Origin: Macrostomum lignano | Taxonomy: Eukaryota | Assembly: GCA_002269645.1 (NCBI GenBank) | Contig: NIVC01003895.1 | Location: 1 to 64,000 of the forward strand | Direction: 5' to 3' | Length of the DNA stretch: 64,000 nt | Shown here: positions 24,179 through 64,000 of the stretch, in pieces | How the letters are laid out: every line of letters begins with the position of its first letter | How positions within the stretch are numbered: position 1 is the first letter of the stretch | The notes under the pieces: model-generated | Database searches by the model: none | Seen by the model: the letters and a program-made list of their open reading frames with translations, nothing else | Told to the model about the DNA's origin: nothing | Made by a program: the position numbers and the translations under genes

Positions 24179-30659
<6,481 letters not shown>

Positions 30660-32074: not shown

Positions 32075-32689
32075 TCCTATATACTAAAAATGAAATGTGT
32101 GTCTCTGTGAGATAGATTTCAGAAAAAACGGCTTAACCGATTTTCTTCAAACTTGCACCATTCGATCAGAAATTTTCCTGGGACGGTACATGCATCTTGG
32201 CTAAGAAATTGCTCAATTTTAAAGGGATTAAATATTCGAAAAACATGCTTGTTTGCAAAGGTCAAGCAGCTCTTTCGACCTGAAATGCATTGTAAGAATG
32301 CTAGAGAAAAAACTGACTGACTGAATTCTGATTCTGACAAAGATTGCATCACAACAAGTTGAAAACAGTGCCGAAGAAATGCACACACGACTTGAATGAA
32401 ATTGCGTAACCATATTGGCAACTTAAATTGAGACTGATTCTGGCTGACTGAGAAATTGATTATGTCATAACTTTTTACTCCAATTGACTTGCTGTAAGAA
32501 TTGAATTATAAGGGCCACAATTTATGTTCTCCAATTGAAAAAGATAGCCCAGATGCGAACAGACTGGAATGCTAATGTAGCGACTTGGGTTCGAATCTTA
32601 GTAGGGCAAAAAAGATTTTTTTTTATTAAAACACCTTAAAAACACAAAACTTCTAAACATAAAAGAAGCGCAATGTCAAACATAGAAGA

Positions 32690-35260: not shown

Positions 35261-35329
35261 ATAAAAGTAAGCGAATTTTAAAGGAGCCACTATAATGCTA
35301 AGGAAATTATCGCACTAGCTACTTATTGT

Positions 35330-35762
35330 CTGGTGGATGCTTGCTATTTGGGGATGCTATCTATGTAGGGGATGCTTGCTATCTGGCGGATGCTTGCTAT
35401 CTGGGGGATGCTTGCTATCTGGGGGATGCTTGCTATCTGGGGGTTGCTTGTAATCTGGAAGATGCCTGCTATCTGGCGGATGCTTGCTATCTGGGGGATG
35501 CTTGCTATCTGGGGGATGCTTGCTATCTGGGGGATGCTTGCTATCTGGGGGATGCTTGCTATCTGGGGGTTGCTTGTAATCTGGAAGATGCTTGCTATCT
35601 GGCGGATGCTTGCTATCTGGAAGATGCTTGCTATCTGGCGGATGCTTGCTATCTGGGGATGCTTGCTATCTGGGGGATGCTTGCTATCTGGGGGATGCTT
35701 GCTATCTGGGGGTTGCTTGTAATCTGGAAGATGCTTGCTATCTGGGGGATGCTTGCTGTCTT
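35330..35762. repeat. 18-bp satellite (GGGGGATGCTTGCTATCT) inside Helitron A; equivalent arrays at ~44560-45190, ~48970-49365 and ~53206-53640
   Basis: Direct reading; produces spurious (GDACYL)n ORFs. Confidence 0.95.
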
Positions 35763-36567
35763 GGGATGATTTCTTTTTGCTTCCTTTGAGTATTTTGTCT
35801 GTTTTTTTTTGTGAAGGCCTTTTTTGGCTATCTTTTTGTTACTTGTAGAGAACAGAGGTTCTATACAGATGTCCCCCAACGGGGGGCGAAGATTGCTAGT
35901 ATAAAACTGAAGAAGGAACTGGTTCTTTAAAAAAAGTAGCATAAAAGCATAAATAATTATTGTTTCATGCTTATTGGCCGCCCCAAAGGTTGTTAGTATC
36001 ATCTAAACCTGTTGCATAACAGGACATCGTCTTTGGGTTTAGGCTAATGAGACATACATTTAAAAATCATGAATTTGATATTTCAGTACTTCATGACATA
36101 TTCACTTAGTTATATAGACTTTCGGTTCCTGGCATGAAGAAATGTTTTCTGGGAATAAAACTCGAGTTTTATAATATCAATTTGTTTATGCTTAGTCAAG
36201 CTAGGAGAAATTAAATGCAATGGTAGATCTCCTTCCAGTATTCTTCACTCGATTGTACGCGCACTCATTAACCCCAGATCAGAGTTTGCAGACCGCGGCA
36301 TCTCTTAGGCGGGTCAGCTAGGTAGCACAATGGCATGGCTCTTTTTAGGGGTTTACAGCCCCAGGCCCTGACCGATGCTTTTGTGTGCTGCGAGACGAAC
36401 TGTACGCGCGGCTATTGTACCCGAGCAGTTTTAGTGTGCAGCCAGCTCTTACTCACTGTTCTTTTCTAACTTGTATTTAAGCGTCGAGCCAGTGCACAGT
36501 TAGCAAGATAACTACTTTTGAGAAATTTTTGTGCGTTTCTTCGTTAACAATAAGATAGAGAGACTCA

Positions 36568-41308: not shown

Positions 41309-41364
41309 TATTAAGTTAATAGACAGTAGAATGCATGAGGGGGCTTCTGGGACAAAATTTTTCA

Positions 41365-41665: not shown

Positions 41666-41853
41666 AGGTGTCCACTGATACCTGTTATGCTCACTGACAC
41701 TGACATAATCCACTGACATCCACCCATAGCATTTTCGAAACAATAAGAAAATAATCTGCATTCTTCTTCCCACATTCAATTTGCAACGCGAAACCAGATC
41801 CCTAAAACTTTAAATCATCAGCGCAGGGTCCTTACCCATTGAAAAAAATCTAA

Positions 41854-44800: not shown

Positions 44801-45330
44801 CTTGCTATCTGAGGGATGCTTGCTATCTGGTGGATGCTTGCTATCTGAGGGATGCTTGCTATCTGAGTGATGCTTGCTATCTGGGGGATGCTTGCTATCT
44901 GAGGGATGCTTGCTATCTGAGGGATGCTTGCTATTTGGGGTATGCTTGCTATCTGAGGGATGCTTGCTATCTGGGGAATGCTTGCTATCTGGGGAATGTT
45001 TGCTATCTGGGGAATGCTTGCTATCTGGGGGATGCTTGCTATCTGGGGGATGTTTGCTATCTGGGGGATGCTTGCTATCTGGGGGATGCTTGCTATCTGG
45101 GGGATGCTTGCTATCTGGGGGATGCTTGCTATTTGAGGGATGCTTGCTATCTGGGGAATGCTTGCTATCTGGGGGATGCTTGTGGTCTTGGGAAGATTTC
45201 TTATTGCAATTCACTTCATTTGAGCAGTTTGTCTGGCTCTTTGTGAAGGCTTTTCTGGCTGTCTTTTTGTTACTTGTAGAGAACAGAGATTCTATCCAGA
45301 TGTCCCCCATCGGGGGGCGAAGATTGCTAG
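41854..45330 (+). mobile_element. Non-autonomous Helitron, copy B (3.48 kb)
   Basis: A|TCCTATATACTAAAAATG start; CCCCCATCGGGGGG hairpin plus CTAG end. Confidence 0.9.
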
Positions 45331-48300
45331 TCCTATATACTAAAAATGAGTTGTCTGTATGTGGGTATGCGATAGATTTCAGAAAAATTGGCTCAACCGC
45401 TTTTCTTCAAACTTGCACCATTCGATCAGAAATTTTCCTGGGACGGTACATGCATCTTGGCTAAGAAATTGCTCAATATTAAAGGGATTAAATATTCGAA
45501 AAACATGCTTTTTTGCAAAGGTCAAGAAAAATTTTCGACTTGAAATGCATTGTAAGAATACTAGAGAAAAACCTGACTGACTGAATTTCAATTCTGATAA
45601 AGATTACATCATAACAAGTTGAAAACAGTGCCGAAGAAATGCACACACAACTTGATTTCAATTGCGTAACCATATTGCTAACTTGAATTGAGACTGATAC
45701 TAGCTGACTGAGAAATTGAAACTTTTTACTCTAACCGACTTGCTGTAAGAATTAAATTATAAGGGCAACAGTTCATGTTCTCCAATTGAAAAGAGATAGC
45801 CATGATGCGAACAGACTGGACTGCTAATGTAGCGACCTAGGTTCGAATCTTAGTAATGCAAAATAATTTTTTTATCAAAATACACTCAAACACAAAATGC
45901 CAAACATAAAGGAAGCGCGATGTAAAACATTAAAGAGCCAACCATCTAAAACATTAAAAGAGCCACCATGTCGAACATTAAAGAGCCACCATGTCAAAGA
46001 TAAAAGAACCACCATGTCAAACATATACGTGACTCCATGTCAAACATATACGTGACTCCATGTCAAATATTAAAGAGCCACCATGTCAAACATAAAAAAA
46101 CCACTATGTCAAAAATTAAAGAGCCACCATGTCAAACATTAAAGAGCCACCATGTCGAACATTAAATAGCTACCATGTCAAACATTAAAGAGCTACCATG
46201 TCAAACATTAAAGAGCCACCATGTCGAACATTAAAGAGCTACTATGTCAAACATTAAAAAGCTACCATGTCAAACATTAAAGAGCCACCATGTCGAACAT
46301 TAAAGAGCCACCATGTCAAACATAAAAAAACCACTATGTCAAAAATTAAAGAGCCACCATTTCAAACATTAAAGAGCTACCATGTCAAACATTAAAGAGC
46401 CACCATGTCGAACATTAAAGAGCTACTATGTCAAACATTAAAAAGCTACCATGTCAAACATTAAAGAGCCACCATGTCGAACATTAAAGAGCCACCATGT
46501 CAAACATTAAAAGAGCCACCATGTCGAACATTAAAGAGCCACCATGTCAAACATATACGTGACTCCATGTCAAACATATACGTGACTCCATGTCAAACAT
46601 ATACGTGACTCCATGTCAAATATTAAAGAGCCACCATGTCAAACAAAAAGAACCACTATGTCAAGCATTAAAGAGCCACAATTTCGAACATTAAAGAGCT
46701 ACCATGTCAAACATTAAAGAGCCACCAGGTCGAACATTAAAGAGCCACCATGTCAAACATTAAAGAGCCACCATGTCAAACATTAAAGAGCAACCATCTC
46801 AAAGATAAAAGAACCACCATGTCACACATATACGTGACTCCATGTCAAACATTAAAGTGCCACAATGTAAAACATTAAAGGGCTACCATGTCCAACATTT
46901 AAGAACCACCATGTTAAACATATACGTGACTCCATGTCAAACATATACGTGACTCCATGTCAAACATTAAAGAGCTACCATGTCAAACATAAAAGAACCA
47001 CTATGTCAAGCATAAAAGAGCCACCATTTCGAACATTAAATAGCTACCATGTCAAACATTAAAGAGCCACCATGTCGAACATTAAAGAGCCACCATGTCA
47101 AAGATAAAAGAACCACCATGTCAAACATATACGTGACTCCATGTCAAACATATACGTGACTCCATGTCAAATATTAAAGAGCCACCATGTCAAACATAAA
47201 AAAACCACTATGTCAAAAATTAAAGAGCCACCATTTCAAACATTAAAGAGCTACCATGTCAAACATTAAAGAGCCACCATGTCGAACATTAAAGGGCCGC
47301 CATGTCAAACATTAAATAGCCACCATGGCGAACATTAAAGAGCCACCATGTCGAACATTAATGAGCCACCATGTCAAACATTAAAAGAGCCACCATGTCG
47401 AACATTAAAGAGCCACCATGTCAAACATATACGTGACTCCATGTCAAACATATATGTGACTCCATGTCAAACATATACGTGACTCCATGTCAAATGTTAA
47501 AGAGCCACCATGTCAAACATAAAAGAACCACTATGTCAAGCATTAAAGAGCCACCATGTCAAACATTAAAGAGCCACCATGTCGAACATTAAATAGCTAC
47601 CATGTCAAACATTAAAGAGCCACCATGTCAAACATTAAAGAGCAACCATCTCAAAGATAAAAGAACCACCATGTCACACATATACGTGACTCCATGTCAA
47701 ACATTAAAGAGCCACCATCTCAAACATTAAAGGGCTACCATGTCAAACATTTAAGAACCACCATGTTAAACATATACGTGACTCCATGTCAAACATATAC
47801 GTGACTCCATGTCAAACATTAAAGAGCTACCATGTCAAACATAAAAGAACCACTATGTCAAGCATAAAAGAGCCACCATTTCGAACATTAAATAGCTACC
47901 ATGTCAAACATTAAAGAGCCACCATGTCAAACATTAAAGAGCAACCATGTCAAAGATAAAAGAACCACCATGTCAAACATATACGTGACTCCATGTCAAA
48001 CATATACGTGACTCCATGTCACACATATACGTGACTCCATGTCAAACATTAAAGAGCCACCATGTCAATCATTAAAGGGCTACCATGTCACACATTAAAC
48101 AGCCACCATGTCGAACATTAAAGAGCTACCATGTCAAACATTAAATAGCCACCATTTCGAACATTAAAGAGCTACCATGTCAAACATTAAAGAGCCACAA
48201 TTTCGATTATTAAAGAGCTACCATCTCAAACATTAAAGAGCCACCATGTCGAACATTAAAGAGCTACCATGTCAAACATTAAAGAGCTACCATGTCAAGC

Positions 48301-49508
48301 ATTAAAGAGTCACCATGTCAAACATTAAAGAGCCACCATGTCAAGCATTAAAGAGCCACCATGTCAAACATTAAAGAGCTACCATGTCAAGCATTAAAGA
48401 GCCACCATCTCAAAGATAAAAGAACCACCATGTTAAAAATATACGTGACTCCATGTCAAACATATCCGTGACTCCATGTCAAACATATCCGTGACTCCAT
48501 GTCAAACATTAAAGAGCCACAATTTCGAACATTAAAGAGCTACCATGTCAAACATTAAAGAGCCACCAGGTCGAACATTAAAGAGCCACCATGTCAAACA
48601 TTAAAGAGCCACCATTTTGAACATTAAAGAGTCACTATGTCAAACATTAAAGAGCCACTTTGTTGAATATTAAAGAGCCACTATGTCAAACATTAAAGAG
48701 CCACCATGTCAAACATTAAAGAGCCACCATGTCGAACATAAAGGAGCCACCATGTCGAACATAAAGGAGCCACCATGTTGAAATTTAAAGAGCCAACCTG
48801 TAAAACATTTAAAAGATTCACCATGTCAAACATATAAGACACTTCATTTCAAACATAAAAGAGCCACCATGTCAAACATAAAAGATACACAATTTCAAAC
48901 GTAAAAGTGAGCGAATTTTAAAGGAGCCACTATAATACTAAGGAAATTGTCGCACTAGCTACTTATTGTCTGGTGGATGCTTGCTATTTGGGGATGCTAT
49001 CTATCTGGGGGATGCTTGCTATTTGGGGATGCTATCTATCTGGGGGATGCTTGCTATCCGGGGGATGCTTGCTATCCGGGGGATGCTTGCTATCTGGGGG
49101 ATGCTTGCTATCTGGGGGATGCTTGCTATCTGGGGGATGCTTGCTATCTGGGGATGCTTGCTATCTGGGGGATGCTTGCTATTTGGGTGATGCTTGCTAT
49201 CTGGGGGATGCTTGCTATCTGGGGGATGCTTGCAATCTGGGGGATGCTTGCTATCTGGGGGATGCTTGCTATTTGGGTGATGCTTGCTATCTGGGGGATG
49301 CTTGCTATCCGGGGGATGCTTGCAATCTGGGGGATGCTTGCTATCTGGGGGATGCTTGCTGTCTTGGGATGATTTCTTTTTGCATTGCACTTCATTTGAG
49401 TAGTTTGTCTGTTTTCTTTGTGAAAGCTTTATTTGGCTATCTTCTTATTACTTGTAGAGAACAGAGATTCTATACAGATGTCCCCCAACGGGGGGCGAAG
49501 ATTGCTAG
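45331..49508 (+). mobile_element. Non-autonomous Helitron, copy C (4.18 kb)
   Basis: CTAG|TCCTATATAC junction at 45330/45331; same 3' hairpin plus CTAG; distinct satellite variant CATATACGTGACTCCATGTCAAA. Confidence 0.9.
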
Positions 49509-52500
49509 TCCTATATACTAAAAATGAAATGTGTGTCTCTGTGAGATAGATTTCAGAAAAAACGGCTTAACCGATTTTCTTCAAACTTGCACCATTCGAT
49601 CAGAAATTTTCCTGGGACGGTACATGCATCTTGGCTAAGAAATTGCTCAATGTTAAAGGGATTAAATATTCGAAAAACATGCTTTTTTGCAAAGGTCAAG
49701 CAGCTCTTTCGACCTGAAATGCATTGTAAGAATGCTAGAGAAAAAACTGACTGACTGAATTCTGATTCTGACAAAGATTGCATCACAACAAGTTGAAAAC
49801 AGTGCCGAAGAAATGCACACACGACTTGAATGAAATTGCGTAACCATATTGGCAACTTAAATTGAGACTGATTCTGGCTGACTGAGAAATTGATTATGTC
49901 ATAACTTTTTACTCCAATTGACTTGCTGTAAGAATTGAATTATAAGGGCCACAATTTATGTTCTCCAATTGAAAAAGATAGCCCAGATGCGAACAGACTG
50001 GAATGCTAATGTAGCGACTTGGGTTCGAATCTTAGTAGGGCAAAAAAGATTTTTTTTTATTAAAACACCTTAAAAACACAAAACTTCTAAACATAAAAGA
50101 AGCGCAATGTCAAACATAGAAGAGCCACCATGTCGAACATAAAAGAGCTAACATATCGAATATTAAAGAGCCACCATGTCAAACCTAAACGAGCCACCAT
50201 GTCTAATATTTAAGAGGCACCATATAAAACATATAAGTGACTTTATGTCAAACATAAAAGAGCCACCATTTCTAACATTAAACAGCCACCATTTCGAACA
50301 TTAAAGAGCCACCATGTCGAAAATAAAAGAGTCACTATTTCGAACATCAAAGAGCCACTATGTCAAACATTTAGGAGCCACTTTTTCGAACATTAAAGAG
50401 CCACCATGTCAAACATAAAAGAGCCAACATGTCAAACATAAAAGAGCCAACATGTCAAACATAAAGAGCCACCATGTCAAACATTTAAGAGCCACCATGT
50501 CAAACATATATGTGACTTTGTGTTAAACATTAAAGAGCCACCATTTCGAACATTAAAGAGCCACCATGTCAAACATGAAAGAGCTATAACATGAAGAATA
50601 TTAAAGAGCCACCATGTCGAACATAAAAGAGCTGCCATGTAAAATAACAAAGAGCTACCAAGTTAAACATAAAAGAGCCACCATGTAAAACATTAAAGAG
50701 CCACCATGTGAAACATTAAAGAGCCACATTGTCAAACCTAGAAGAGCCACCATGTCGAACATAACAGAGCTACCATGTCAAACATTAAAGAGCCACCATG
50801 TCAAACATTCAAAAGTTACATTGTCAAACATTGAAGAGCCACTATGTCAAACATTTAGGAGCCACTTTGTCGAACATTAAAGAGCCAACATGTCAGACAT
50901 TAAAAAAGCCACCGTATCAAATAAAAAGAGTTAACATGTAGAACAAAAAAGAGCCACCATTTCGAACATAAAAGAGCCAACATGTCAAACATAAAGAGCC
51001 ACCATGTCAAACATTTAAGAGCCACCATGTCAAACATATATGTGACTTTATGTCAAACATTAAAGAGCCACCATTTCGGACATAACAGAGCTACCATGTA
51101 AAACATTAAAGAGCCACCATGTCAAACATTAAAGAGCCACCATGTCGAACATAAAAGAGCCACCATGTCAAACCTAAAAGAGCCACCATGTCGAAAATAA
51201 AAGAGCCACTATTTCGAACATTAAAGAGCCACCATTTCGAACATTAAAGAGCCACCATGTCGACCATAAAAGAGCCACTATTTCGAACATTAAATATCCA
51301 CCATGTCGAACATAAAAGAGCCAACATGTCAAACATAAAAGAGCCAACATGTCAAACATAAAGAGCCACCATGTCGAAAATGAAAGAGCCACACCATGGG
51401 GGGCCGTAGCCCAGCGGTAGCGCAGCTGCTCTGGTGTGCCGCGACCCAGGCTCGATTCCAAGTGCAGCCACATTAATTTGGGGCTGGATTGGAATCTTGG
51501 CTTGGCTCGCTTGTGCAATTAACGGCCTTGAGAGCCAACCCCCCCAAGGCGCAGTGAAGTGTACATGCCTAACAATTGATAAAAGTTAGGGCCGCTGTAC
51601 ACTCCTGTGTGAGTGTGTGCCTGCGTAACGTATCCGCGCGCTTGTATGCCTGCTCAGGGGAGTCGGCGGAATGGGCAGTAATGCCTCTCGCCGGTTGTGT
51701 GCCTATGACGCTTAAATTGCGCCAGGGTGCACACAACCCCCCTGCCTCTAAAAAAAAAAAAAATAAAAAAAATAAATAAAAAAAATAAAAAAAAAATAAA
51801 AAAAGAGCCACCATGTCGAAAATGAAAGAGCCACAATTTCGAACATTAAAGAGCCACCATTTCGAACATTAAAGAGCCACCATGTCGACCATAAAAGAGC
51901 CACCATGTCAAACATGAAAGAGCTATAACATGAAGAATATTAAAGAGCCACCATGTCGAACATTAAAGAGCCACCATGTCGAACATTTAAGAGCCACCAT
52001 GTTAAACCTAAAAGAGCCACCATGTTAAACCTAAAAGAGCCACCATGTTAAACCTAAAAGAGCCACCATGTTAAACCTAAAAGAGCCACCATGTCAAACC
52101 TAAAAGAGCCACCATTTCGAACATATAAGTGACTTTATGTCAAACATTAAAGAGCCACCATGTCAAACATTAAAGAGCCACCATGTAAAACAAAAGAGCC
52201 ACCATTTCGAACATTAAAGAGCCACCATGTCAAACATTTAAGAGCCACCATGTTAAACATAAAAGAGCCACTATGTTGAACATTAAACAGCCATCATGTC
52301 AAACCTAAAAGATCCACAATTTCGAACACTTAAGAGCCACAATGTAGAATATTAAAGAGCTACCATGTCAAACATTTAAGAGCCACCATGTCAAACATTT
52401 AAGAGCCACCACGTAAAACATTAAAGAGCCACCATTTGAAACATTAAAGAGTCACCATGTCAAACATTTAAGAGCCACCATGTCAAACATTTAAGAGCCA

Positions 52501-53776
52501 CCATGTCAAACCTAAAAGAGCCACCATGTCAAACCTAAAAGAGCCACCATGTCGAACATAAAAGAGCCACCATGTCAAACCTAAAAGAGCCACCATGTCG
52601 AACATAAAAGAGCTATACCATGAAAAAAATTAAAGAGCCACTATCTCGAACATTAAAGAGCCACCATGTCAAACATTTAAGAGCCACCATGTCAAACATT
52701 TAAGAGCCACCATGTCAAACCTAAAAGAGCCACCATGTCAAACCTAAAAGAGCCACCATGTCAAACCTAAAAGAGCCACCATGTCGAACATAAAAGAGCT
52801 ATACCATGAAAAACATTAAAGAGCCACTTTCTCGAACATTAAGGAGCCACCATGTCAAACATTTAAAAGCCACCTTGTCAAACATTAAATAGCCACTTTG
52901 TCGAACATTAAAGAGTCACTGTGTCAAACATAAAAGAGCCACTGTTTCAAACATAAAAGAGCCACCAGGTTAAACATTAAAGAGCCACCATGTCAAACAA
53001 TAAAGAGGCACCATGTCAAACATAAAAGAGCCACCATGTCTGACATTAAAAAGCCATCGTTTCAAACATAAAACAGTTGCCATGTAGAACTTAAAACAGC
53101 CACCATGTCAAACATAAAATTTACACAATTTCAAACATAAAAGTAAGCGAATTTTAAAGGAGCCACTATAATGCTAAGGAAATTATCGCACTAGCTACTT
53201 ATTGTCTGGTGGATGCTTGCTATTTGGGGATGCTATCTATGTAGGGGATGCTTGCTATCTGGCGGATGCTTGCTATCTGGGGGATGCTTGCTATCTGGGG
53301 GATGCTTGCTATCTGGGGGTTGCTTGTAATCTGGAAGATGCCTGCTATCTGGCGGATGCTTGCTATCTGGGGGATGCTTGCTATCTGGGGGATGCTTGCT
53401 ATCTGGGGGATGCTTGCTATCTGGGGGATGCTTGCTATCTGGGGGTTGCTTGTAATCTGGAAGATGCTTGCTATCTGGCGGATGCTTGCTATCTGGAAGA
53501 TGCTTGCTATCTGGCGGATGCTTGCTATCTGGGGGATGCTTGCTATCTGGGGGATGCTTGCTATCTGGGGGATGCTTGCTATCTGGGGGTTGCTTGTAAT
53601 CTGGAAGATGCTTGCTATCTGGGGGATGCTTGCTGTCTTGGGATGATTTCTTTTTGCTTCCTTTGAGTATTTTGTCTGTTTTTTTTTGTGAAGGCCTTTT
53701 TTGGCTATCTTTTTGTTACTTGTAGAGAACAGAGGTTCTATACAGATGTCCCCCAACGGGGGGCGAAGATTGCTAG
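49509..53776 (+). mobile_element. Non-autonomous Helitron, copy D (4.27 kb): near-identical to copy A plus a SINE insertion
   Basis: CTAG|TC junction at 49508/49509; ends CTAG|T at 53776/53777; its length exceeds copy A by ~443 bp, equal to the SINE plus its duplication. Confidence 0.9.
51393..51803 (+). mobile_element. Young tRNA-derived SINE with poly(A) tail, inserted in Helitron D
   Basis: GGGGGCCGTAGCCCAGCGGTAG (A-box), GGCTCGATTCC (B-box), A-rich tail; AAAGAGCCACCATGTCGAAAATGAAAGAGCCAC occurs on both sides but only once at the matching site of copy A (~33927-33958). Confidence 0.88.
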
Positions 53777-53789
53777 TTTTTCTCTAAAA

Positions 53790-54029
53790 ATGTTTCCAGT
53801 TGTCTCTCCAGGTTCTTATTACAAAGCGCACGAGCCTAATTACAAGAGTAAGTACCAATGCAAGAAGGAATGCAGCGAGTACATGAGAAAATATTGGCCC
53901 GATGTTGATATCAATGCCCCTAATATTAATCTAGCTCTTCAAAGACACTGGTTTCATAAGTACGGAGTAACCTACGTAAAAGATTACGACAGCTATTATA
54001 ACTTTGCAGAAGTTATAAGGCAGTTGTAG
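53790..54029 (+). CDS. Small viral hypothetical protein (79 aa, MFPVVSPGSYYKAHEP...)
   Basis: ATG in the element's AAAAATG context; the ORF-track start at 53688 runs through the Helitron end and is not credible. Confidence 0.55.
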   Translation: MFPVVSPGSYYKAHEPNYKSKYQCKKECSEYMRKYWPDVDINAPNINLALQRHWFHKYGVTYVKDYDSYYNFAEVIRQL

Positions 54030-54088
54030 TAGCCAACTACAAGGTTGTACCTGGCGGCTTATATCAATGTTACAAGTCTGAAGACGAC

Positions 54089-54946
54089 TCACATTCTCTC
54101 AATAATAATTGTTAGCACAAACTCTTCCCCGTTAAAATCGACACCAACTCCATCCGCTGTTTCAAACTGCAGAACGATTTCATGTATCTCTCTATTACTC
54201 AGAATCACTCTTTTCACGGGGTTTGGCTTTTGCACAAGCATTTTGCCACCAGCAACAGAGTTTGAAATGTTAAAAAGTATGTTGGTTCGTTTGCCCTTGA
54301 ATATCCAATCATGGCTCAGATTGCTGCGAATTAATATATTCAAGCCTTTGACAATGTCAGCGATATTTGGCGCCAAGTACATACCGGATATTAGCCGGGA
54401 CACAGCAACAGTGCCAGGCGCCTGCGGCGGGCTTTGGTCTGTGGCGCCACCATAAACTCTCTTTTCAAATCCCAACTCGCGATACCAAGTGCCATCTTTA
54501 AACTCTACCTCTGCGTCCTTATGAACTTGCAAGACAACTCTCATGACAGTTAGATCATAAGTTAATCTAACAGGGAACAGTTTATTTTCTGGTTTGCTTT
54601 CATCCGGTATCTCAAAATGCTTTCGTTTAGTGAAGACGTTCTCCAAGAAGTAATTATAAGTATCCACGCTCTGTGTGCTGACAGGAAATATCACAACCTC
54701 TGTTGTAGTACGCTTCCATTTGTAATAAAACTTGTTATTTTCCGCTGTCACATTGGGAACATTTGACCACCCAGTGAAATCATTGAGATAGACGTGGTAA
54801 TTCGCCTCGGGATCCAAACGAAGTGGTTGCTCCAATTTTTGAATGAAGATTCCGTTTGACTCAGTAATGCGACCCGCTACAGTGATTGGAATGCTCTCCT
54901 TAGAGTGTGAAACAATGTTGTTCAGTCTTTCGGCTATGGCTTCCAT
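54089..54946 (-). CDS. Minor capsid (penton-like) protein, 285 aa
   Basis: 'LEQPLRLD...YHVYL......NVPNVTAENNKFYY' and C-terminal 'NILFN...VAGG..LVQKP.....IHEIVLQF....G..VDFNGEE' match the Polinton/adintovirus penton pattern; adjacent to the MCP gene. Confidence 0.8.
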   Translation of the reverse strand: MEAIAERLNNIVSHSKESIPITVAGRITESNGIFIQKLEQPLRLDPEANYHVYLNDFTGWSNVPNVTAENNKFYYKWKRTTTEVVIFPVSTQSVDTYNYFLENVFTKRKHFEIPDESKPENKLFPVRLTYDLTVMRVVLQVHKDAEVEFKDGTWYRELGFEKRVYGGATDQSPPQAPGTVAVSRLISGMYLAPNIADIVKGLNILIRSNLSHDWIFKGKRTNILFNISNSVAGGKMLVQKPNPVKRVILSNREIHEIVLQFETADGVGVDFNGEEFVLTIIIERM

Positions 54947-54967
54947 TTTTTTATTGAAAAAAATTAT

Positions 54968-56263
54968 TCAAACTTTACTAGACAAGTTATTGATCATATT
55001 GACCTTGATCTTCCTCTCAAATGCATAGATAATAAACAGATCAACAGCCGTTGCGGCACCAAATTCTTTCCGCTCGATATTAGTCACAATGTTAACAGGG
55101 CTATTGTCTGTAGGCATTTGTCTAGCAGTCACATCAACACCAAATATTGGATATAGTTTTTTATACTGCAAGGTTGTCAAAACAATACCGTTATTCTCTT
55201 TGACAGCCAGGTCCGACAGTTCATTGTAAAACTTACTAATCTTGTTCTCCGAGAAATTCCCATTTTGTGGCAATGCAGGGTATAAATTGTCACTGATCTC
55301 ATGTTGAATCGATCGAACGTTTCCATGTAGATATCTACCTACATTAGTCGTACTCCTCATAGTGACGATAATGTACCTTGGATTGCTATAGGAGCCTTCT
55401 TTAATGCAAATATTGTGTCTTGCGTCATTGCGCTCATCTCTGCACATATAAGCTGTATAAGCAACATCAATGTCTTTCTCAATCGCCTTCAAGTATTCAG
55501 CTTTGAGTGCAGTCTTGGGCTCAATAATTTCTAAGTACAGCTCCACGCTAGTTAGCTTAATCTCCATCGATGTATGATTGGCCCCCGACCAAATTCCTCT
55601 GTTCCGATCATCTCTAGTCAGTCTAAATGTGTAGCTAAAGTTGCTTGTCAACCGATTGAAACTATTACAGAAACCACTCATAAACCTCAAAGGTACAAAA
55701 ATATCTACAGACCTAAACAACGGATTCTTAGCAGCATCGTTCTCACCAGCAAGAGCATAGTTGTATCTCTCCTTTCTCTTTTTGTAACCAGGGTCATTCT
55801 CATCTCCTGTCTGTTCATTGGGGATGAATCCAGCACCGCTCCCCATCTGAATAAAATCCGGGTTCTCAATCAAGCATTGGGTATCATAGACCACACCAAA
55901 GTTTGCTATTCTTTCCAATTCTGTACTTCCATTGGACACAATAAACTCTTTGAGCATATAAGCCCAGAAATTACTGGTTAGTGCGACATCCGCATTGTGT
56001 AGATCATCATTAGCATGAGCGGCGTCTGCGCCTCCTTTAGTTTTGAATTGATACGTCATATAGAAGCCGCTCCTTAGACTGTGGACACTGACCAAAGACG
56101 AACATCCGTTGTATGTGAATGTCAGCGTTTGACCTGGACCCAAATTAGTTTCATTCTGATTTTCCTGACTGGGAACTCTTACCTGAGTCGCTTTGATTGT
56201 GCTATCATCACTCAAAATAGGCTTGTTAATTTTGTAGAAAACTAGAGTCAGTGGGTCGTTCAT
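54968..56263 (-). CDS. Major capsid protein (double jelly-roll, Polinton/adintovirus type), 431 aa
   Basis: Size, beta-rich composition, motifs such as 'FVPLRFMSGF' and 'PRYIIV...LYPIFGVDVT', and position next to the penton; the ORF is uninterrupted. Confidence 0.78.
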   Translation of the reverse strand: MNDPLTLVFYKINKPILSDDSTIKATQVRVPSQENQNETNLGPGQTLTFTYNGCSSLVSVHSLRSGFYMTYQFKTKGGADAAHANDDLHNADVALTSNFWAYMLKEFIVSNGSTELERIANFGVVYDTQCLIENPDFIQMGSGAGFIPNEQTGDENDPGYKKRKERYNYALAGENDAAKNPLFRSVDIFVPLRFMSGFCNSFNRLTSNFSYTFRLTRDDRNRGIWSGANHTSMEIKLTSVELYLEIIEPKTALKAEYLKAIEKDIDVAYTAYMCRDERNDARHNICIKEGSYSNPRYIIVTMRSTTNVGRYLHGNVRSIQHEISDNLYPALPQNGNFSENKISKFYNELSDLAVKENNGIVLTTLQYKKLYPIFGVDVTARQMPTDNSPVNIVTNIERKEFGAATAVDLFIIYAFERKIKVNMINNLSSKV

Positions 56264-56295
56264 TTTTTTTAACTAAAAATAAAATAAAATAAGAA

Positions 56296-57039
56296 ATGAA
56301 GCGAAAAAGTACACAGCAGATATCTGAATTGGAGAAGCTAGCACAAGCAGAGAAACGAGTTACCGGACTAATAAATAAGGAGCAACAATCCTACAATGAG
56401 TTTGTCCAAGCAGCCACAGAGTTTCATAAGCCTGGGTATGGAGAAGCTAAGAAAAATATTGATCAAGTCAAAGAAACTATCGACGACATACAGGAAACCC
56501 AAGTGCAAAAGGTTTTGGGCAAAATTCCAGAAGCACCACAGATACAACCGCAGCGACAGATACAGCCACAACCACAACAATCACAACAACAACAATCACA
56601 ACCACAACAACAGCAACTAAAAGTGACAGATAACATTTTTGGACCAGTAGAGCGTGTAGAACATGATGGGAAATATGTATTTGGAATAAGTATGTGGAGA
56701 AAAAATATTTATAATGAACCAGTGAATAATATATCAACATTAAGGAAAATATTTCTGTTGTCAAAGGCTCAGAAACTAAGAGCATTCCTTTCACAGAAAC
56801 CTTACTGAATTTTATGACTAAGAACCAAGAGAGAATCTCGGACAAGCTGCTAAAGAACTACAAAGATCTAGTGACTTTTTCTCTTGCTAGAGATATAGAA
56901 ATACTAAAGGTCCCAGAAGTTCTGAAACACATGTACGATAGCGGTGTCAACCTGACTAGATTCAAAAAGTACAAGCACATCAAAGTATGGTTCGGTTTGC
57001 CAGATCAGGAAGAAGTCATTGATCAGATGAAATATCTAG

Positions 57040-57074
<35 letters not shown>

Positions 57075-57535
57075 CCACAACCACAGCAACAACATTTTAC
57101 AGAAGTACTCAGGCAACTGGAAAATGCAGATCCGACTCAAGTAGCTAAATATAAAAATGATCACCCAGATGCCTGGCAACGCTTAGAACAACACTCTCCA
57201 GATCGAATGAATAGAATCAATCAAAGAGTTTTCACACCTCAACAAAGACAGGCACCACATGACAGTTCCATCTCTGAAAGCGAGCAGTCTTTTGCGTCAC
57301 CTCCCCAGCAGCTACAAGCCCAACCGACTCCACAACCCCAAGACCAACCGCCCTCAACTGGAAAAGGAATTTCTGAAATCTACAAACGAGTAGCGGTTCT
57401 TCTAGGAGCGGCAAAGACCGGAATGAAAGATGAAAATAGAAAAGAATTTGTCAACATCCTGGACAAAATGCTTGAGAGAAAATACATCGATAAGAGGGCG
57501 AGAGAGCTTCTGCTTTCGCGTTCAACAAAAAATAA
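56296..57535 (+). CDS. Q-rich viral hypothetical protein, reconstructed from ORFs 56296-56808 and 56814 onward across a -1 shift at ~56731
   Basis: The frame of ORF 56814 is open back to 56730 ('NIKENISVVKGSETKSIPFTETLLNFMTKN'). The C-terminal 'RVAVLLGAAKTG......EFVNILDKML...I' resembles a recurring Polinton motif. One extra A in the A6 run at 57527-57532 would give a TAA stop. Confidence 0.55.
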
Positions 57536-57550
57536 TTTATTTCAAGTAAA

Positions 57551-57941
57551 AATGCCGATTATTTTTGAGAAAGACGTGGACAAATACTATGACAAAGAGG
57601 AACTTAATCTTATTAAACGCGGATCTGGACTTTTCCCTGCAGGCCACTATCCAAGAAAAGAACGCTCTGGGAATGGCCTTGCCGATTTGATCGCTCAGGG
57701 GGCCAAGATTTTTAAGGTCATTGGAGAGAACAAAGAGAACATCAAGAATGTTGCCGAAGCGGCTGGCAGTGTAGCCACAGCAGCCAAAAAGATAAAGGAT
57801 ACTGTAACACCTAAACAAGAGATTCAGCCTCCACTAGCCCCGCTGGCTCCACTGACCCCAAATCCAGACAGTGTGGACCCTGCAGTCTATTAGAAGATGA
57901 GAGCTAGCATTAAAAAAGGAAGTGGTTTCAAATTTGACTAA
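57551..57941 (+). CDS. Small basic virion-core/amphipathic-helix protein with GSG motifs (in-frame TAG at 57891)
   Basis: Starts at AAAAATG (MPIIFEKD...IKRGSGLF...SGNGLADLIAQGAKIFKVI...); after the TAG the frame continues KMRASIKKGSGFKFD*. Confidence 0.5.
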
Positions 57942-57984
57942 AGGGTACTTTCCGAGGGTACAAGAAATGTAAAGGTACAAGACT

Positions 57985-58088
57985 AGTCCCAAAATGACAT
58001 ACCTAAGTCCCGAAATGACACATCTAAGTCCCAAAATGACACATCTAAGTCCCGAAATGACACATCTAAGTCCCAAAATGACACATCT
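57985..58088. repeat. 21-bp intergenic repeat (CATCTAAGTCCCAAAATGACA), ~5 copies
   Basis: CATCT at 58021, 58042, 58063. Confidence 0.9.
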
Positions 58089-58131
58089 TCTAAATTATTT
58101 ATTATTAAAAAAATTTTCATCATAGAAAAAA

Positions 58132-58932
58132 ATGGACTTTTCAAACGACTTCAATCCTCACTGGACACGTAATCAGATTAAGTTTTCTCATCACGAGTCG
58201 ATCCCAAGTCACTTCAGATGCATTGTTGTTGGTTCATCAGGTTCAGGTAAAACATTCAGAGTCTTTAACATGCTTCTTAGACCTGGCTTTATCGACTATG
58301 ACACTCTGCACATCTACTCTCCCACACTGTATCAAGATGAGTATAAAATGCTGATTTCTGGATTGCAAAACAAACTGAACAAAGAGGACATTATTCAATG
58401 TTTTAATAACCAACAAAACCTTCCCAGCAACCCAGAAATTGTAGCTGCTGAATATGCAAAGCACCTCAAAGACAATGAAAAATGGCAGAACATTAAAGTG
58501 TTCACCTATGGAGATCCACAGGCTGATCCAAAGACCAAACTTCTACCCCAACCAGATGAGCTAGAAAAAGGGAGAAAGCATTTGATCGTCTTTGATGATT
58601 GTATGACAGGCCCACAGAAGCAGATAGAAAACTATTTTACAAGAGGACGACATAACAATTGTAATGTAATTTAGATTGCACAGAACTGGTTCGAGCTCCC
58701 GAACAAAACAATTCGTGGGAACTGTAATCTGATTCTCCTGTTTCCAACCATTCCACAGGATAGGCTAAAAAGATTTTACAATGAGGTCATTGCGCCAGCC
58801 TATTTTATAAATCCAACAAAAAACTCAAACAGAAAGATTTCACAGGAGGAATTCGTTAACCTCTGCTTCGAAAAGTGGAACCAACCCTATCAGTTTGTCG
58901 TGATCAACAAGGAAAAAAGAACTGTAATCTAA
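58132..58932 (+). pseudogene. A32/FtsK-like genome-packaging ATPase with an in-frame TAG at 58672-58674
   Basis: Walker A VVGSSGSGKT, Walker B LIVFDDCM, 'FTRGRHNNCNVI*IAQNWFELP.KTIRGNCN'; the frame stays open for 85 further codons to TAA at 58930-58932. Confidence 0.92.
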
Positions 58933-58947
58933 AATTTGCTATTAAAA

Positions 58948-59202
58948 GATGTCTATTAATTTTGCAGGTGAATCCATTTCTGGCAACAGCGCTCTTACAT
59001 CAGCTCAGATATCCATCCTTGAAGGCGATATATCAACAGCGACGAAAAGATCCCAGAGATCAAACTGAATAAAAACAGACTGAAAGCCCTAGAGCGCTCC
59101 ATGCACCAGTTGCAAATAAACATGGAAGATCTCAGGCTTAAAGTAGCTAGGCAGAAGTTTGAAAGTGATAAGCTTTTTGTTGCTCATATTGAGGTGCACT
59201 AG
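58948..59202 (+). CDS. Small viral coiled-coil hypothetical (MSINFAGESIS...), frameshifted at the A4 run ~59045
   Basis: Adding one A links 'STATK' to 'KIPEIKLNKNRLKALERSMHQLQ...'; stop at 59200, or at ~59263 if that TAG is a mutation. Confidence 0.4.
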
Positions 59203-59361
59203 GTGCTGTGGGAGCATTTGGATCATAAAGAGAATTTTGAGCATCCATTTTTAGAGAATTTTTAAAAAAAATTGACAACTAGTTGGTGGTGGTTAGATTT
59301 GTTTTACGTTTGATTGTTTCGTCTGCAGTTGGCGCCAGCAGGTCTCTTCGAATCTACCTTT

Positions 59362-59934
59362 TTATTTGTCTATGCGCTCCATTCTACACTTGATCTCAAA
59401 CAAACCGGTTAGCTCACGAAATTTTGGGTTAGTGGTCAAATTGGTTGGCTCACGAAATTTGTGGTCAGTGGTCAAGTCGGTTGGATCACTTATTTCCCTT
59501 GTGGTCTGTGGTGCCTCTTCAACAGTATCAATATCAGGAAGATTGTGTACTCCCTCAAGACGACTGATTCTTCTCAACGATTTCTGCCATTCGGTAAAAA
59601 TTAAATCTAAATAGACTTTAATTGCATCAAGTCTTTTTTTAATTCTATCATGCAACGCTGTTGACTGGTTCATGAACTCTTCTAAATTCCTCACTTTACC
59701 TGTGTTGGTTGCGACGTTTTCTTTAATTCTATCATGCAGCGCTGTTGACTGAGTCATGAACTCTTCTAAATTATTTACTTTAGCTTTGTTTGTGAAAGCT
59801 CCTCCTTCAAGAATACGCATCCGTCTATCAGTGGAATTTCCCAGAAGATTAACTGATGATCTCAAGCCGTTGATTAGCGAGACTATCGAAGTTATTTCTG
59901 ACCTCAGTTCATTAGTTGCGTTTAACAACGGCAC
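59362..59934 (-). CDS. Viral coiled-coil protein with an internal 29-aa duplication (TNKAKVNNLEEFMTQSTALHDRIK / TNTGKVRNLEEFMNQSTALHDRIK)
   Basis: 190-aa ORF within the viral gene block; true start uncertain (non-ATG). Confidence 0.6.
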   Translation of the reverse strand: MPLLNATNELRSEITSIVSLINGLRSSVNLLGNSTDRRMRILEGGAFTNKAKVNNLEEFMTQSTALHDRIKENVATNTGKVRNLEEFMNQSTALHDRIKKRLDAIKVYLDLIFTEWQKSLRRISRLEGVHNLPDIDTVEEAPQTTREISDPTDLTTDHKFREPTNLTTNPKFRELTGLFEIKCRMERIDK

Positions 59935-60500
59935 AAAAACTCTACCCCGTCATTACTTGTAACTCTCAGCAGTTTCGAATGGTGGAGATTCAAAAAATGC
60001 GCGATGATCTTGAAAAAAATATTTTCCACAACACAAAGAAAATTAAGCGCTATGACAGCCACTGTAAATTTTTCGACTACAGCAATATGATTCTAGGATC
60101 TGCGTCTGTTCTATCTGGATCTGCTGCAGCTGTCTCAGTGTTGCCAGTCATCACAGCCCCAATCGCAATCCCGCTCGGCTCTGTGGGTGCTGCATGTGGA
60201 CTTATTTCAGCAATTACTGGAGCATTAGCGCGAAACAGGCGAAAAAAACTAAAACAGCTACAGGAGAAGCAAGTAAAAGAGAAAGGGGTGCACACTTCAA
60301 TCACAGGGTACGTTTCAAGGGCAATCGAGGATAAGTTCATTTCAGAGGATGAGTTCAAAACCATTCAGGATCTTTATGAACAATCAATTCGAATGAACTT
60401 GAACATGGTCGGTACTGATGACATGAGTCAGCTGAAAAATGAACTCGAGAAAGTTTTTCAACATTATGCGGCAAGAAGGACAACGAGAAATGCACAATGA
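59916..60500 (+). CDS. Conserved Polinton/adintovirus-type membrane protein (two hydrophobic helices)
   Basis: 'KLYP......FRM.EI....LE', central Gly/Ala-rich hydrophobic hairpin and 'VSRAIEDKFISEDEF..I' motif; start uncertain (TTG). Confidence 0.65.
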   Translation: MRLTTAQKLYPVITCNSQQFRMVEIQKMRDDLEKNIFHNTKKIKRYDSHCKFFDYSNMILGSASVLSGSAAAVSVLPVITAPIAIPLGSVGAACGLISAITGALARNRRKKLKQLQEKQVKEKGVHTSITGYVSRAIEDKFISEDEFKTIQDLYEQSIRMNLNMVGTDDMSQLKNELEKVFQHYAARRTTRNAQ

Positions 60501-60504
60501 ACCC

Positions 60505-60906
60505 CTATGAAACACAGGTACGAATAATTTCCTTGTAGGTCTTTCGTGTTTTGGTCATTGCATACAAAACAGTCATGCACAGCTCACCGCAAATATCACT
60601 GCTAAGACCTTGGAGAATAAAGTCTGAGTGGTAAATTTTTTTATTATTTTTCCCCTTCATATAATTTCTTAGCTCTTCTGGTACTGCCGTCCCATAGCTA
60701 TCAAAGTAATAACACTTGTGCTTGCGATCGGGATCAATCACCCAGCAAACCCAATGAGATCCTGGCTTGTCGGTGGTGTCAAAGTTCATGATGCCGCATT
60801 CTTTTCTTAGAGGAAAATCAGGCAGAGTGTCCCTCATAAATATTCCTCTAAAGTTTGGGATTTCCAGTTCGTTAGCCAAATCTTCAAGAAAGTTATTTGT
60901 CGTCAT
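60505..60906 (-). CDS. Adenain-like cysteine protease (virion maturation), 133 aa
   Basis: FRGIFMRD.LP; GIMNFD...PGSHW (His); YYFDSYG (Asp); ILQ....ICG.LC (oxyanion Gln, catalytic Cys); intact ORF. Confidence 0.9.
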   Translation of the reverse strand: MTTNNFLEDLANELEIPNFRGIFMRDTLPDFPLRKECGIMNFDTTDKPGSHWVCWVIDPDRKHKCYYFDSYGTAVPEELRNYMKGKNNKKIYHSDFILQGLSSDICGELCMTVLYAMTKTRKTYKEIIRTCVS

Positions 60907-60949
60907 TTTTTATGTCATTTTTTATGAGGTTTATTAAACTTTCTCTTAA

Positions 60950-61050
60950 ACCTAAACCCAATCTCCAGTGCCCGAACCCAATCTCCAGTGCCCGAACCTA
61001 ATCTCCACCTCCTAAACCCAATCTCCTAAACCTAATCTCCAGTGCCCGAA
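60950..61050. repeat. Short repeats (AACCCAATCTCCAGTGCCCG-like) copied from the last codons of pPolB
   Basis: AGTGCCCGAAC is the reverse complement of the F-G-H codons at the pPolB C-terminus and is repeated three times. Confidence 0.8.
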
Positions 61051-64000
61051 CGGTAGACTGTTAATATTGTCATCAAAAATGAATCTCTTGTTATCTGCAC
61101 CTGACAGTCCAATCTTCTTTTGCTGAATTGTGTGAATAATATGGTTTTTTGATTGTAGCTTTGAGAACTCATGTGATGTCTTTTTGTTGCAATTCAAGGC
61201 GTCTCTGTATTCAGCTTCATTAATTTCCTTCCTTACGACGCGTTTCGGAATTCCCTTTGATTTTTTATTGGGTCTGACGACTCACATTTTACAAAATAGG
61301 ACTTTGCTCTCAACCCAATGAATTCAGTGATTATGTCACCAGCAATCTCGTCCTTCATTTTCCCAATCACTTTTTTGTTAGTGGCGTCAAACACTTGATC
61401 GCCATTCTGTGTCCTGAAAGATTCATCATACTCAGACAAGTCAAACATATCTTTTTGCTGCAGCATATCCTGATAAATGTCTTCTGTTTGAATGTCCATA
61501 ATAAAACTGTCTGTGTCAGTGTACAAGAGTTTCATTTTATCCTTGTACTGCTGCTTCATGCCATAGAAGAACTGGTACATCAGACGTTTTGATTCGTCGA
61601 GAACAGTGACACCTGTATAGATCGGCTTGCGCAGCGTCACCTTGGTTTTGTAAAATATGATCACACCTAAGTAGCTATTAAAGATATGGAGTTCTTTGAA
61701 CGTTGGCTTTGACATATTTGCCTGAATAACAGCAGGCTCTGATGAGGTAACAAGTTTCAGGTTTGTTCTTTTCCGCTCATTCTCAAGAGTCTTGCCATAG
61801 ACAGAGTTGTTGGCCAACTTAAAGAGGTTCTTGTCAAAGTCGTTGGTTGCTTTGGTCCTAAACTGGGTGTTCTTATCAATGTAGGGTTTCATCCACGCTT
61901 CCTCTGTAAATGTAACAGCCCTGTGAACTTTGGTGACCCTGCAACCAAGTGAGATAAAATACTGAAGCAGTTTGTAATGGATTTTGTAACGTGTCTTGTT
62001 GTTTAGATTCTGTGTTAGTTTTTCTGTATGTTCTTTTTCTGTTCCTGACAGGTGCCAAGTTCCATTGGGAGTTTCGATTATTTTCGGGCACTTGATGTTC
62101 TCTGGGAAGGGTGGAAAGTCAGAGAAATAGTCGTGAAGCTCTGGTGGAATGTAAACATCAACCTGATAAATGGCAGCCAATGAAAAGTCCCATTTGAATT
62201 CTGATGAGGGTAGCCATCGAAAATCTCTAACTGGAAGATCTTGACTCATCGCCCACCCGTAGAGATTATTAGCGTCCAAGTAAGTAATGTAGTTTGAGGG
62301 CTGCTCCTTATTGTAAGATTCAATGTAGGGATTGTTTGCTTTTGCATACCTGTTAACGCAAATTGAGATTCCCCCTCGCTTTGACGATTCGACAAAATTG
62401 TACATGTCAATGTCTGTAAGAAGTTCAATGTACCAATCTGGATCTTGATCCCATTTCATTTTAAGCAAAGATTCCCAGCTAGTGGCAGGCAGAGACACAT
62501 AATGTGCTGGATCTGCTGTGTACCAGGTGTATCTGAAGGTTTCAAACACATCGGCCAGCAGAAACACATCTGTGTAGAGGTAAAGCATGTGATACTGGAA
62601 GAAGTTTTGACAATTAAAGTAATTATAGACATGCTTCGCGTGCTCATAGTCTTTGTCAGAGATTCCAGAGTCTGTTAGCTTTGAAAAGAACTTCTCCTGT
62701 GGTGGTAAACCTTCTTCAAATACGTGATACCCAGTAATATTTTCATAGGGTAGAAGCCTTTGGTTCTCAGGAGTTTAAATGATTCATCACTGTTGTAAAC
62801 TTTACTTGCAAACGTCTTTGTATATGTACATTGTTCATCTTTTAGATTCTTGCTTAGTTCGTCTAGACTGGCAGCTAGAAATTGATATGAATCCTTCAGT
62901 CTTATTTTACCTTTACCCGAATTATCCTGTTTAATATCAACACACTTAAACTTCTCCTTGTTCTCTGCGATGCAATCAAGGTGTATGTCTGGAATCATGC
63001 CGATTTTTTCAACTATTAAATGCATGTCATAGTTCTTTGCGTTGTGGCAAAATATCGTTAGATCATGAATGTTCGATTTTAGCTTTAGATTACAGGTGTT
63101 ATGCGCTGCACCTCTAAATTTCCCAGTATAGTGGTAGTGGTCTCTAACGGTCGGGTTTTTAATATCAGTGCAAGTTAACTGTTTCCTGCAGATGTGAGAA
63201 TGAATTGCTGATAGGAAATTGCTTTCATCCTCCTCAGTCATCATTATTGGAACAGGTTGAAGCTAGGGTGCTAATCAATTTTTGCAACTCTAACATTCTG
63301 GCAATAAACTGCTCCACACACTGCTCTCCAAAGAAATAATTATACTCAACAAGTCCTTTTGTATTAATAAAGGCATATGCTACTGAATTGGGGACATGTT
63401 TTTGAGTTTGAGTTTGTTTTTGAGTTTCTGGCATGATTGAGCATTCGAAATCAGCATATACAACAAATGGGAGCTTCTCCATCTTGTGATAGTTCTTAAA
63501 CCGGAATACTTCTCTTCAGCTGAAGGAAGAGAGCAGTTTGTTGGGTGATCCTCGCATGATAATTCATGCTCTGCTAGTTTTTCAAGCGTTCAGGTCCACT
63601 GTAATGCTTAAGGCACAAGCGGCAGATGGCAACAGCCTCGTGATGATTATTCAACTGCTTGTGAATGAGTCTTGAAAGATCTTTAATCCAAACATAGTGA
63701 GCCTCCTCTAGTAAATTACCAATCACTAGAAGATCCACTTCAGTCCGCCTTTTCCCCTCAGGATCTAAAACGTCTTTGCTACATCTGACCGGTTGAACTT
63801 TCTCAGTTTTTTCACTCCATTCAAAGACTGTGATTCTAATTTTGTTATTAAACACTTCTTCTAGCTTTGGGATCTGAGAGATCGCCAAGCCTCCTTTGTC
63901 AAACCTGATTCCCTTCTTTTCGCATTCGATGAGATAGTAGTTGAAATAATTTTGATAATTTGAGGTTCTTTCGGGGTGGTGAGGTACACTAAAAAGTGCA
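61012..64000 (-). pseudogene. Protein-primed family B DNA polymerase (pPolB) split by four frameshifts; N-terminus beyond the window
   Basis: ExoI 'LPFVVYADFEC', endonuclease-VII-like 'HICRK...VRDHYHYTGKFRGAAHNTCNL', 'HNAKNYDMH', 'YLDANNLYGWAMS', 'KLANNSVYGK', 'YTDTDS', 'KSKGIPK', 'DNKR...SLPFGHW'. Breaks at ~63577, ~63260, ~62749 and ~61263. Confidence 0.95.

Follow-up and report, generated by a model that had tools for sequence, protein, structure and literature searches.

A probable decaying Polinton/Maverick provirus with an unnamed capsid lineage, abutting a Helitron stack in Macrostomum lignano

The right-hand end of a 64,000-nucleotide (nt) stretch of Macrostomum lignano DNA (contig NIVC01003895.1, assembly GCA_002269645.1, positions 1 to 64,000 of the forward strand; the whole stretch is called the window here) carries a block of viral-type genes from 53777 to 64000, raising the question of what kind of element this is, whether the copy could still function and where it begins. 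A preliminary description had taken it for an endogenous Polinton/adintovirus-like virus, an identity and a state supported by the fold of the capsid protein, the relatives of the polymerase and the junction with a Helitron described below. The element is best read as a germline-integrated, decaying Polinton/Maverick provirus of the eupolintovirus/adintovirus type in an animal host, incapable of its own replication or packaging, a reading given a probability of roughly 0.8. The element is real but the copy is defective, with a broken packaging ATPase and a broken protein-primed DNA polymerase (pPolB) and with accessory open reading frames (ORFs) that also look damaged. Four features expected of a Polinton are present, namely pPolB (as a broken gene), a double jelly-roll (DJR) major capsid protein (MCP), an FtsK/A32 ATPase and an adenain-like protease, such that membership is probable if incomplete and the element probably works like a Polinton. 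Its overall design is ordinary; its capsid protein has no named close relative.

All eleven ORFs of the preliminary description were found at the place, on the strand and in the order claimed. Named ORFs make up 93% of 53790-64000, densely packed on both strands, with the longest stop-free frame reaching 513 amino acids (aa), whereas no frame exceeded 165 aa across 100 mononucleotide shuffles. The composition of the block differs from that of the host, with a GC content of 39.8% and a CpG observed/expected ratio of 0.62 compared with 45.3% and 0.87 in the array-masked DNA to the left, and a third-position GC content of 0.39-0.47 in six viral frames compared with 0.57-0.77 in three host ORFs. 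The gene functions given below are predictions established by homology.

The MCP (54968..56263, minus strand) is an uninterrupted frame of 431 aa that matched PF21738 at 32.7 bits (cut-off 27). An AF2 model built from a 126-sequence alignment had a pLDDT of 94.1 and a pTM of 0.92, and a Foldseek search of the PDB with this model returned the capsids of Sputnik, PBCV-1 and mavirus, the best being the Sputnik MCP (E 2.4e-19, TM 0.66), with VIA aligning 344 residues to the PBCV-1 capsid chain 8h2i_bz (Z 25.1, rmsd 3.5). The modelled fold can be called a double jelly roll with confidence. The Foldseek result of a low-quality model built on 13 sequences (pLDDT 49.7) was set aside, and sequence searches of the PDB with the MCP and with the deep MCP profile returned nothing significant.

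Among 3754 candidates a word-based search identified 13 relatives of the MCP, none of them carrying an informative name; seven have 65-75% identity, three 40-43% and three 22-25%. A profile search of 1.84 billion representatives gave 2487 relatives at E<=0.001. The phylogenies proposed in the preliminary description were built for the MCP and pPolB among fetched proteins. For the MCP, 125 of the 162 stored relatives (340-520 aa) were combined with the window protein, with FastTree placing it in a long-stemmed clade of 11 rows (support 100) and IQ-TREE, run on 36 hand-picked rows, recovering the same clade (nine rows kept) at 100/100. The other members are P0001-P0006, at 69-75% to the window MCP, and P0007, P0009, P0010 and P0134, at 40-43%, while the best identity outside the 11-row clade among the top 30 BLASTP rows was 27%. 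The window MCP has an end branch of 0.19 compared with 0.09-0.16 in its relatives. As drawn, with no named hexon in the trees, this isolation is one among fetched proteins rather than an absence from catalogues such as Repbase. A search of BFVD with the good model listed 50 matches at 5-13% identity with no close named adintovirus hexon among them, and for this reason could not assign the MCP to the Alpha or Beta class. A scan of GTDB genomes with the clade alignment gave 64 pattern matches, none of which was confirmed. Taken overall, the capsid genes belong to a lineage that is probably absent from catalogues.

Next to the MCP lies an uninterrupted 285-aa frame (54089..54946, minus strand) which is putatively a penton or minor capsid protein from its size, its position and a likeness to such proteins. 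The penton label, given earlier without qualification, found no support from profile or structure, with no match in Pfam and none in the PDB. Twelve homologues at 53-63% identity were found among 632 candidates, none with an informative name; its profile recovered only these 12 relatives from 294 stored proteins, no match was seen to phage records and the comparison with the MCP profile gave a probability of 0.7%. Atlas returned a feature score of 0.98 to viral clusters with a recognition score of 2214, below the tool's threshold of 2300. One MCP relative and one relative of the putative penton have the same longest-contig value of 3702, which suggests that the two are linked on one contig, the closest relatives of both proteins being on short contigs of 0.7-8.5 kb.

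The packaging ATPase, of A32/FtsK type (58132..58932, plus strand), matched PF04665 at 27.2 bits (cut-off 22.8) when read with an X at its in-frame stop (58672-58674), with Walker A, Walker B and RGRH patterns present; a sequence search of the PDB gave nothing significant. The adenain-like (C5) maturation protease is an uninterrupted frame of 133 aa (60505..60906, minus strand), scoring just under the cut-off of PF00770 (E 3.6e-4) and matching the adenovirus proteinase 1avp at E 0.0056, with H/D/Q-C patterns of catalytic type. MCP, putative penton and protease are thereby as uninterrupted as had been claimed. The 'complete morphogenesis module' of the preliminary description is complete as an inventory but not intact, the stop in the ATPase making the phrase an overstatement for a decayed copy.

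The pPolB gene (61012..63999, minus strand) is of the predicted Alpha class with an EndoVII insert and is broken into five pieces, with frame changes near 63583-63509, 63260, 62750 and 61265 and its N-terminus beyond the window. A profile from 25 pPolB matches mapped colinearly to five of the 38 frames scanned, giving four frame changes, and a short gap at profile positions 352-378 may hide a fifth. Coverage starts at position 234 of 1208, the first ~233 positions lying beyond 64000. Both ATPase and pPolB had been called recognisable and nearly repairable; they are recognisable by profile and homologues, but pPolB is split into at least five parts, and some 230 profile positions at its start are missing from the window. 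At E<=1e-10 the longest piece, in which the polymerase motifs are intact, matched at least 3611 of the 8000 proteins scored. Identity was 42-49% across the 120 matches listed, and the 13 of these with a named organism all come from animals or animal adintoviruses. Identity to the PolB of the Corynactis coral adintovirus was 43% over the core, a polymerase grouped with Alpha PolB in Fig. S2 of Starrett (2021, PMC8502044). By sequence likeness pPolB is of the PF03175/Alpha type, the PF03175 match itself being weak with a Pfam score below cut-off, and a sequence search of the PDB with the piece gave nothing significant. The EndoVII domain also occurs in about 40 of the 120 listed matches (hand count), so that the insert is not special. 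FastTree, run on the unbroken piece with all but one of the 120 listed matches (119), gave the window sequence a long end branch (0.98) and no supported sister, in a search restricted to proteins of at least 899 aa that would miss fragmentary close relatives. The top match, P0014, has an rve domain within the same predicted protein.

Judged by these comparisons, the divergence of the element would lie mainly in the capsid genes and less in pPolB. The earlier view of the proteins as divergent, and of the lineage as possibly undescribed, holds for the capsid genes, with their nameless relatives and well-supported clade, but is weaker for pPolB, which shares 42-49% identity with widespread Polinton polymerases of animals, even if its own branch is long.

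The start of the element at 53777 was rejected as a viral terminus, this position being the hairpin-CTAG 3′ end of the last of three head-to-tail copies of a non-autonomous Helitron-like element, a stack overlooked in the preliminary description. The three copies, all on the plus strand, are He2 (41854..45330, preceded by A), He3 (45331..49508, head-to-tail with He2) and He4 (49509..53776), the CTAG end of which abuts viral DNA, with T as the next letter. A solo copy, He1 (32075..35899, plus strand), lies in host DNA and shows that the junction repeat is a host-genome element, with the 137 nt ending at 53777 identical to 35764-35900. The viral DNA is joined directly to this host-genome repeat and in this respect is endogenous. 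All four copies have a 5′ TC and a 3′ hairpin (5-bp stem) located 10-15 nt before CTAG, and the family carries 23-bp arrays (87-132 copies) and 18-bp arrays (22-35 copies). Neither a coding domain in the four copies nor a RepHel partner in the window was found. The copies resemble the non-autonomous head-to-tail Helitrons of maize and bat, for which the published marks are a 5′ TC, a 3′ hairpin then CTAG, an A|T target and CTAG-TC junctions, although the maize palindrome, at 16-20 nt, is longer than the stem here. The ends of He1 and He4 are 99.6-100% identical and other pairs, including those within the stack, 84-89%. With this much divergence among its members, the stack is most readily explained by separate insertions into a single site rather than by simple tandem amplification. 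The triplet lies at A|T and the solo He1 at T|T, a minor target class in the Helraiser data. Both outer 3′ flanks are similar to the 5′ end of the element itself, with 6 and 24 of 1602 control AT sites scoring as high, which fits Helitron target preference. The stack provides an example of a misread provirus boundary and a small test case for that preference. A diverged fragment (78%) of the Helitron-like 5′ region is present at 31683-31812, 260 nt before He1.

If the Helitron insertion was clean, the DNA left of 41854 was the original neighbour of ORF79, the first viral frame. The candidate left end of the provirus would then be the single-copy segment 41325..41853 (529 bp; no strand assigned), which contains 3.6 copies of an 81-84 bp repeat (41364-41661) and starts near AGTAG at 41325. 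That this segment is the viral left end is a tentative proposal, rather less likely than not. The 4-mer score of 41310-41853 was 0.003 compared with -0.004 to 0.047 in 18 viral windows and -0.11 to 0.031 in 49 host windows, and AGTAG occurs twice in 39400-41853, about chance frequency. The length falls within the 46-1447 bp given for terminal inverted repeats (TIRs) of vertebrate Mavericks by Barreat and Katzourakis (2021). No long near-perfect inverted repeat was found within 53777-64000 or in 41310-41860. Alternatively, a deletion joined a remnant Helitron start to viral DNA, in which case the start of ORF79 could be an artefact. Another candidate, AGTAGT at 40608, is unlikely to be the left end as it would enclose a 27-bp minisatellite that is also found in host DNA (23215-23336). 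A Polinton is expected to have TIRs with AG/AGT termini and a target site duplication (TSD) of 5-8 bp. The right end lies beyond the window, and an (AGT)2 or (AG)3 terminus with a TSD could not be shown. The TP/vOTU N-terminus of pPolB likewise lies beyond 64000, the in-window evidence ending there, within pPolB.

By analogy with the family literature, the active ancestor of this provirus would have had a linear genome with terminal repeats copied by protein priming, which the ATPase would have packaged into an icosahedral shell of MCP and penton, with the protease maturing the particle and an rve integrase inserting the genome into the host. The broken pPolB and ATPase would leave this copy unable to replicate or package alone. 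Afterwards three non-autonomous Helitrons would have accumulated at a single A|T site just upstream of ORF79, the pile-up separating the viral gene block from whatever lay to the left. The inactivity of the copy and the order of these insertions are what we infer from the breaks and the junction.

Several points weigh against reading the element as a decaying Polinton provirus. The Pfam scores of the protease and pPolB fall under their cut-offs, the penton lacks profile or structure confirmation, and the integrase, TIR, TSD and TP/vOTU region lie outside the window, so that two name-giving features are unseen. Some frame changes may be assembly errors, two of the four lying near a homopolymer run of at least 5 (0.72 expected). 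The repeat that contains the junction has a nearly identical second copy at a distance of 17 kb, such that a mis-join further left is possible.

The frame changes bear directly on whether the element is intact or nearly so, its breaks being sequencing or assembly errors, which is distinctly unlikely. The MCP, penton, protease and membrane-protein genes are clean, the MCP end branch is little longer than those of its relatives and three of the four pPolB frame changes lie near runs of at least 4 (1.76 expected). However, this homopolymer excess is small with n=4, the breaks in the ATPase and accessory genes are in-frame stops rather than homopolymer indels, and a Helitron stack 13 nt upstream of ORF79 would be typical of an inactive locus.

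No integrase was present in the window, as had been claimed, which says little because the window end cuts the element inside pPolB. The rve integrase had no match in the viral ORFs. To the left of 53777, outside the tandem arrays, all 96 stop-to-stop ORFs with a length of 75 aa or more likewise lacked an rve match, and tblastn with the P0014 integrase region found nothing in the window. Most likely the gene lies past the right window edge or has been lost. It has alternatively to be considered that the element derives from an animal MELD virus that lacks an integrase and was taken up passively in the course of DNA repair, with Polinton-like replication and assembly and not an adintovirus, which is very unlikely. 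In vertebrate Mavericks and in the Beta adintovirus map the integrase adjoins the penton, while here the slot adjoining the putative penton holds ORF79 only, and integrase-less MELD viruses have been reported from Hydra and a spider. Yet those cases have an adenovirus-like PolB, while pPolB here is of the Alpha Polinton class with its top match carrying an rve domain in the same predicted protein, and the element continues past the window.

The distribution of the breaks raises the further idea that the host kept the capsid, penton and protease under selection as a domesticated particle module while the replication and packaging genes decayed, which is highly improbable. None of the five to six clear lesions lies in the genes for MCP, penton, protease and membrane protein, which together span 3078 bp (p ~0.03-0.05 if lesions arise at a uniform rate), but the test is post hoc and borderline with gene sets picked after the breaks had been seen, and the lesions are few such that short genes escape by chance. 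That a free virus or contaminant was chimerically assembled onto host DNA, as the unlike composition and the short contigs of the closest relatives might suggest, is scarcely credible given that the viral DNA, which carries several disabling breaks not expected in a free virus, directly abuts the exact CTAG|T terminus of a Helitron family present four times in host DNA.

Among known systems the provirus is closest to the Eupolintoviridae, formerly Adintoviridae, placed in Amphintovirales and Polintoviricetes. In common with members having an Alpha PolB, such as the Corynactis coral adintovirus, it has an Alpha/PF03175 pPolB, both with EndoVII, and it shares with the family a DJR capsid, an FtsK/A32 ATPase, adenain and an animal host. 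In contrast, no named MCP or penton relative was found, the copy is broken and PF08398 (PLA2X) had no match in the viral ORFs of the window. Alpha polymerases paired with Beta-class virion modules, for example in Parasteatoda, are already described in Starrett (2021, PMC8502044). The order resembles the Beta virion map in the machine-read text of Fig. S2 of that paper (penton - hexon - conserved unknown - FtsK - protease/membrane gene - PolB), while differing in having no integrase beside the penton, genes on both strands and an order that differs in detail. Beta virions are marked by a hexon and penton clustering with Terrapene-type proteins, by GasderminX and cupiennin and by the absence of PLA2X, and the comparison here covered gene order and the search for PF08398.

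The core gene inventory also resembles that of vertebrate Mavericks, most copies of which are degraded by stops and frameshifts, with the two-module layout of the latter (pPolB-ATPase-PM-PZ facing INT-minor capsid-PW-MCP-protease) not kept (Barreat and Katzourakis, 2021). The MCP clade offers the nearest capsid relatives, although its members are unannotated records without genomic context or host. No published account of this element or of its capsid clade was found in the accessible literature, with Repbase and subscription papers outside the search. The literature drawn on comprised PMC8502044, PMC8097293, 10.1101/2023.08.22.554363, PMC11071308, PMC2267711, PMC4778049, PMC11131425, PMC6431247, PMC12451622 and 10.1101/2025.02.07.637071.

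Endogenous Polintons are very common in animals, with 20,702 integrase-linked pPolB1 homologues in 960 genomes, and most copies are degraded, so that one more defective copy is ordinary. The element is of use as a marker giving gene order and host linkage to a capsid clade whose other members were met here only as nameless proteins, and it is a further case in which polymerase and capsid modules have diverged at unequal rates. The virions of Mavericks were unobserved as of a 2021 abstract, and the locus would matter more if relatives in the clade lack an integrase or form particles. A bolder proposal is rather unlikely, namely an undescribed genus-level animal Polinton-type lineage that joins an Alpha polymerase to a deeply branching capsid module of its own and still circulates (the 69-75% relatives on short contigs) as an integrase-less true virus, entering the germline solely by accident, and in its boldest form with the host also having kept the capsid and protease genes intact.

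The remaining viral ORFs are less readily assigned. ORF79 (53790..54029, plus strand), starting 13 nt past the Helitron junction, had no Pfam match and one weak PHROG match (E 0.046). The Q-rich ORF (56296..56808, plus strand; 170 aa) had no significant Pfam match and the 'core-like' ORF (56814..57941, plus strand), with 359 aa to 57893 and a short in-frame tail, had none. Of the ten start sites listed, all but 56814 (core-like) and 59979 (membrane protein) have an A-rich leader, which also precedes the internal ATG of the core-like ORF at 57552. The Q-rich ORF and the 5′ part of the core-like ORF are probably one frameshifted core-protein gene, with the 3′ part probably a second small gene marked by the leader at 57552, the G-x-G motifs and the premature stop at 57891-57893. 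A small ORF in two overlapping frames (58949..59202, plus strand) had no significant Pfam match. The coiled-coil-like frame (59362..59949, minus strand) is 195 aa stop to stop, with a first ATG at 59820 and internal 84-bp and 36-bp repeats. The membrane-type protein (59979..60500, plus strand; 173 aa, uninterrupted) has a hydrophobic stretch at about residues 44-80 by hydropathy, and in Atlas had a score of 0.94 against unnamed clusters drawn from both viruses and molluscs, with recognition below threshold. The small G-x-G protein and this hydrophobic protein could match the cupiennin-like and gasderminX slots of the Beta map. Eight other viral frames had no match among the 294 stored proteins, PHROGs gave only weak polymerase, EndoVII and terminase matches to the viral ORFs and Rfam gave 0 matches. 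Tandem repeats of 21 bp (57985-58088, before the ATPase) and 20 bp (60948-61040, at the pPolB 3′ end) occur within the block.

The surrounding host DNA carries further features, of which the fibrinogen-domain genes and the MULE transposase remnant would suggest an animal. A MULE transposase remnant in two overlapping frames lies at 5521-6590 on the minus strand (PF10551, E 7e-12), and short frames at 13907-15452, which had no Pfam match at E<=0.001, may be gag and aspartic-protease remnants of an LTR retroelement. A 273-bp satellite array of ~21 copies (24179-30659) has long TCTA/CTAT microsatellites at both sides, and a 515-aa open frame (36559-38106, plus strand) consists of degenerate repeats of 28-33 aa with no convincing Pfam family. 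A short ORF that has several cysteines and begins like a signal peptide occurs three times, at 22910-23624, 31302-31549 and 38697-39352, the copies being near-identical (95-97%). In one of them a 27-bp minisatellite is expanded at the start of the ORF, and this minisatellite forms a further array of 20 copies at 40760-41309. Two genes or exons with a fibrinogen C-terminal domain (43-703 and 11119-12638) are 83% alike over ~670 nt.

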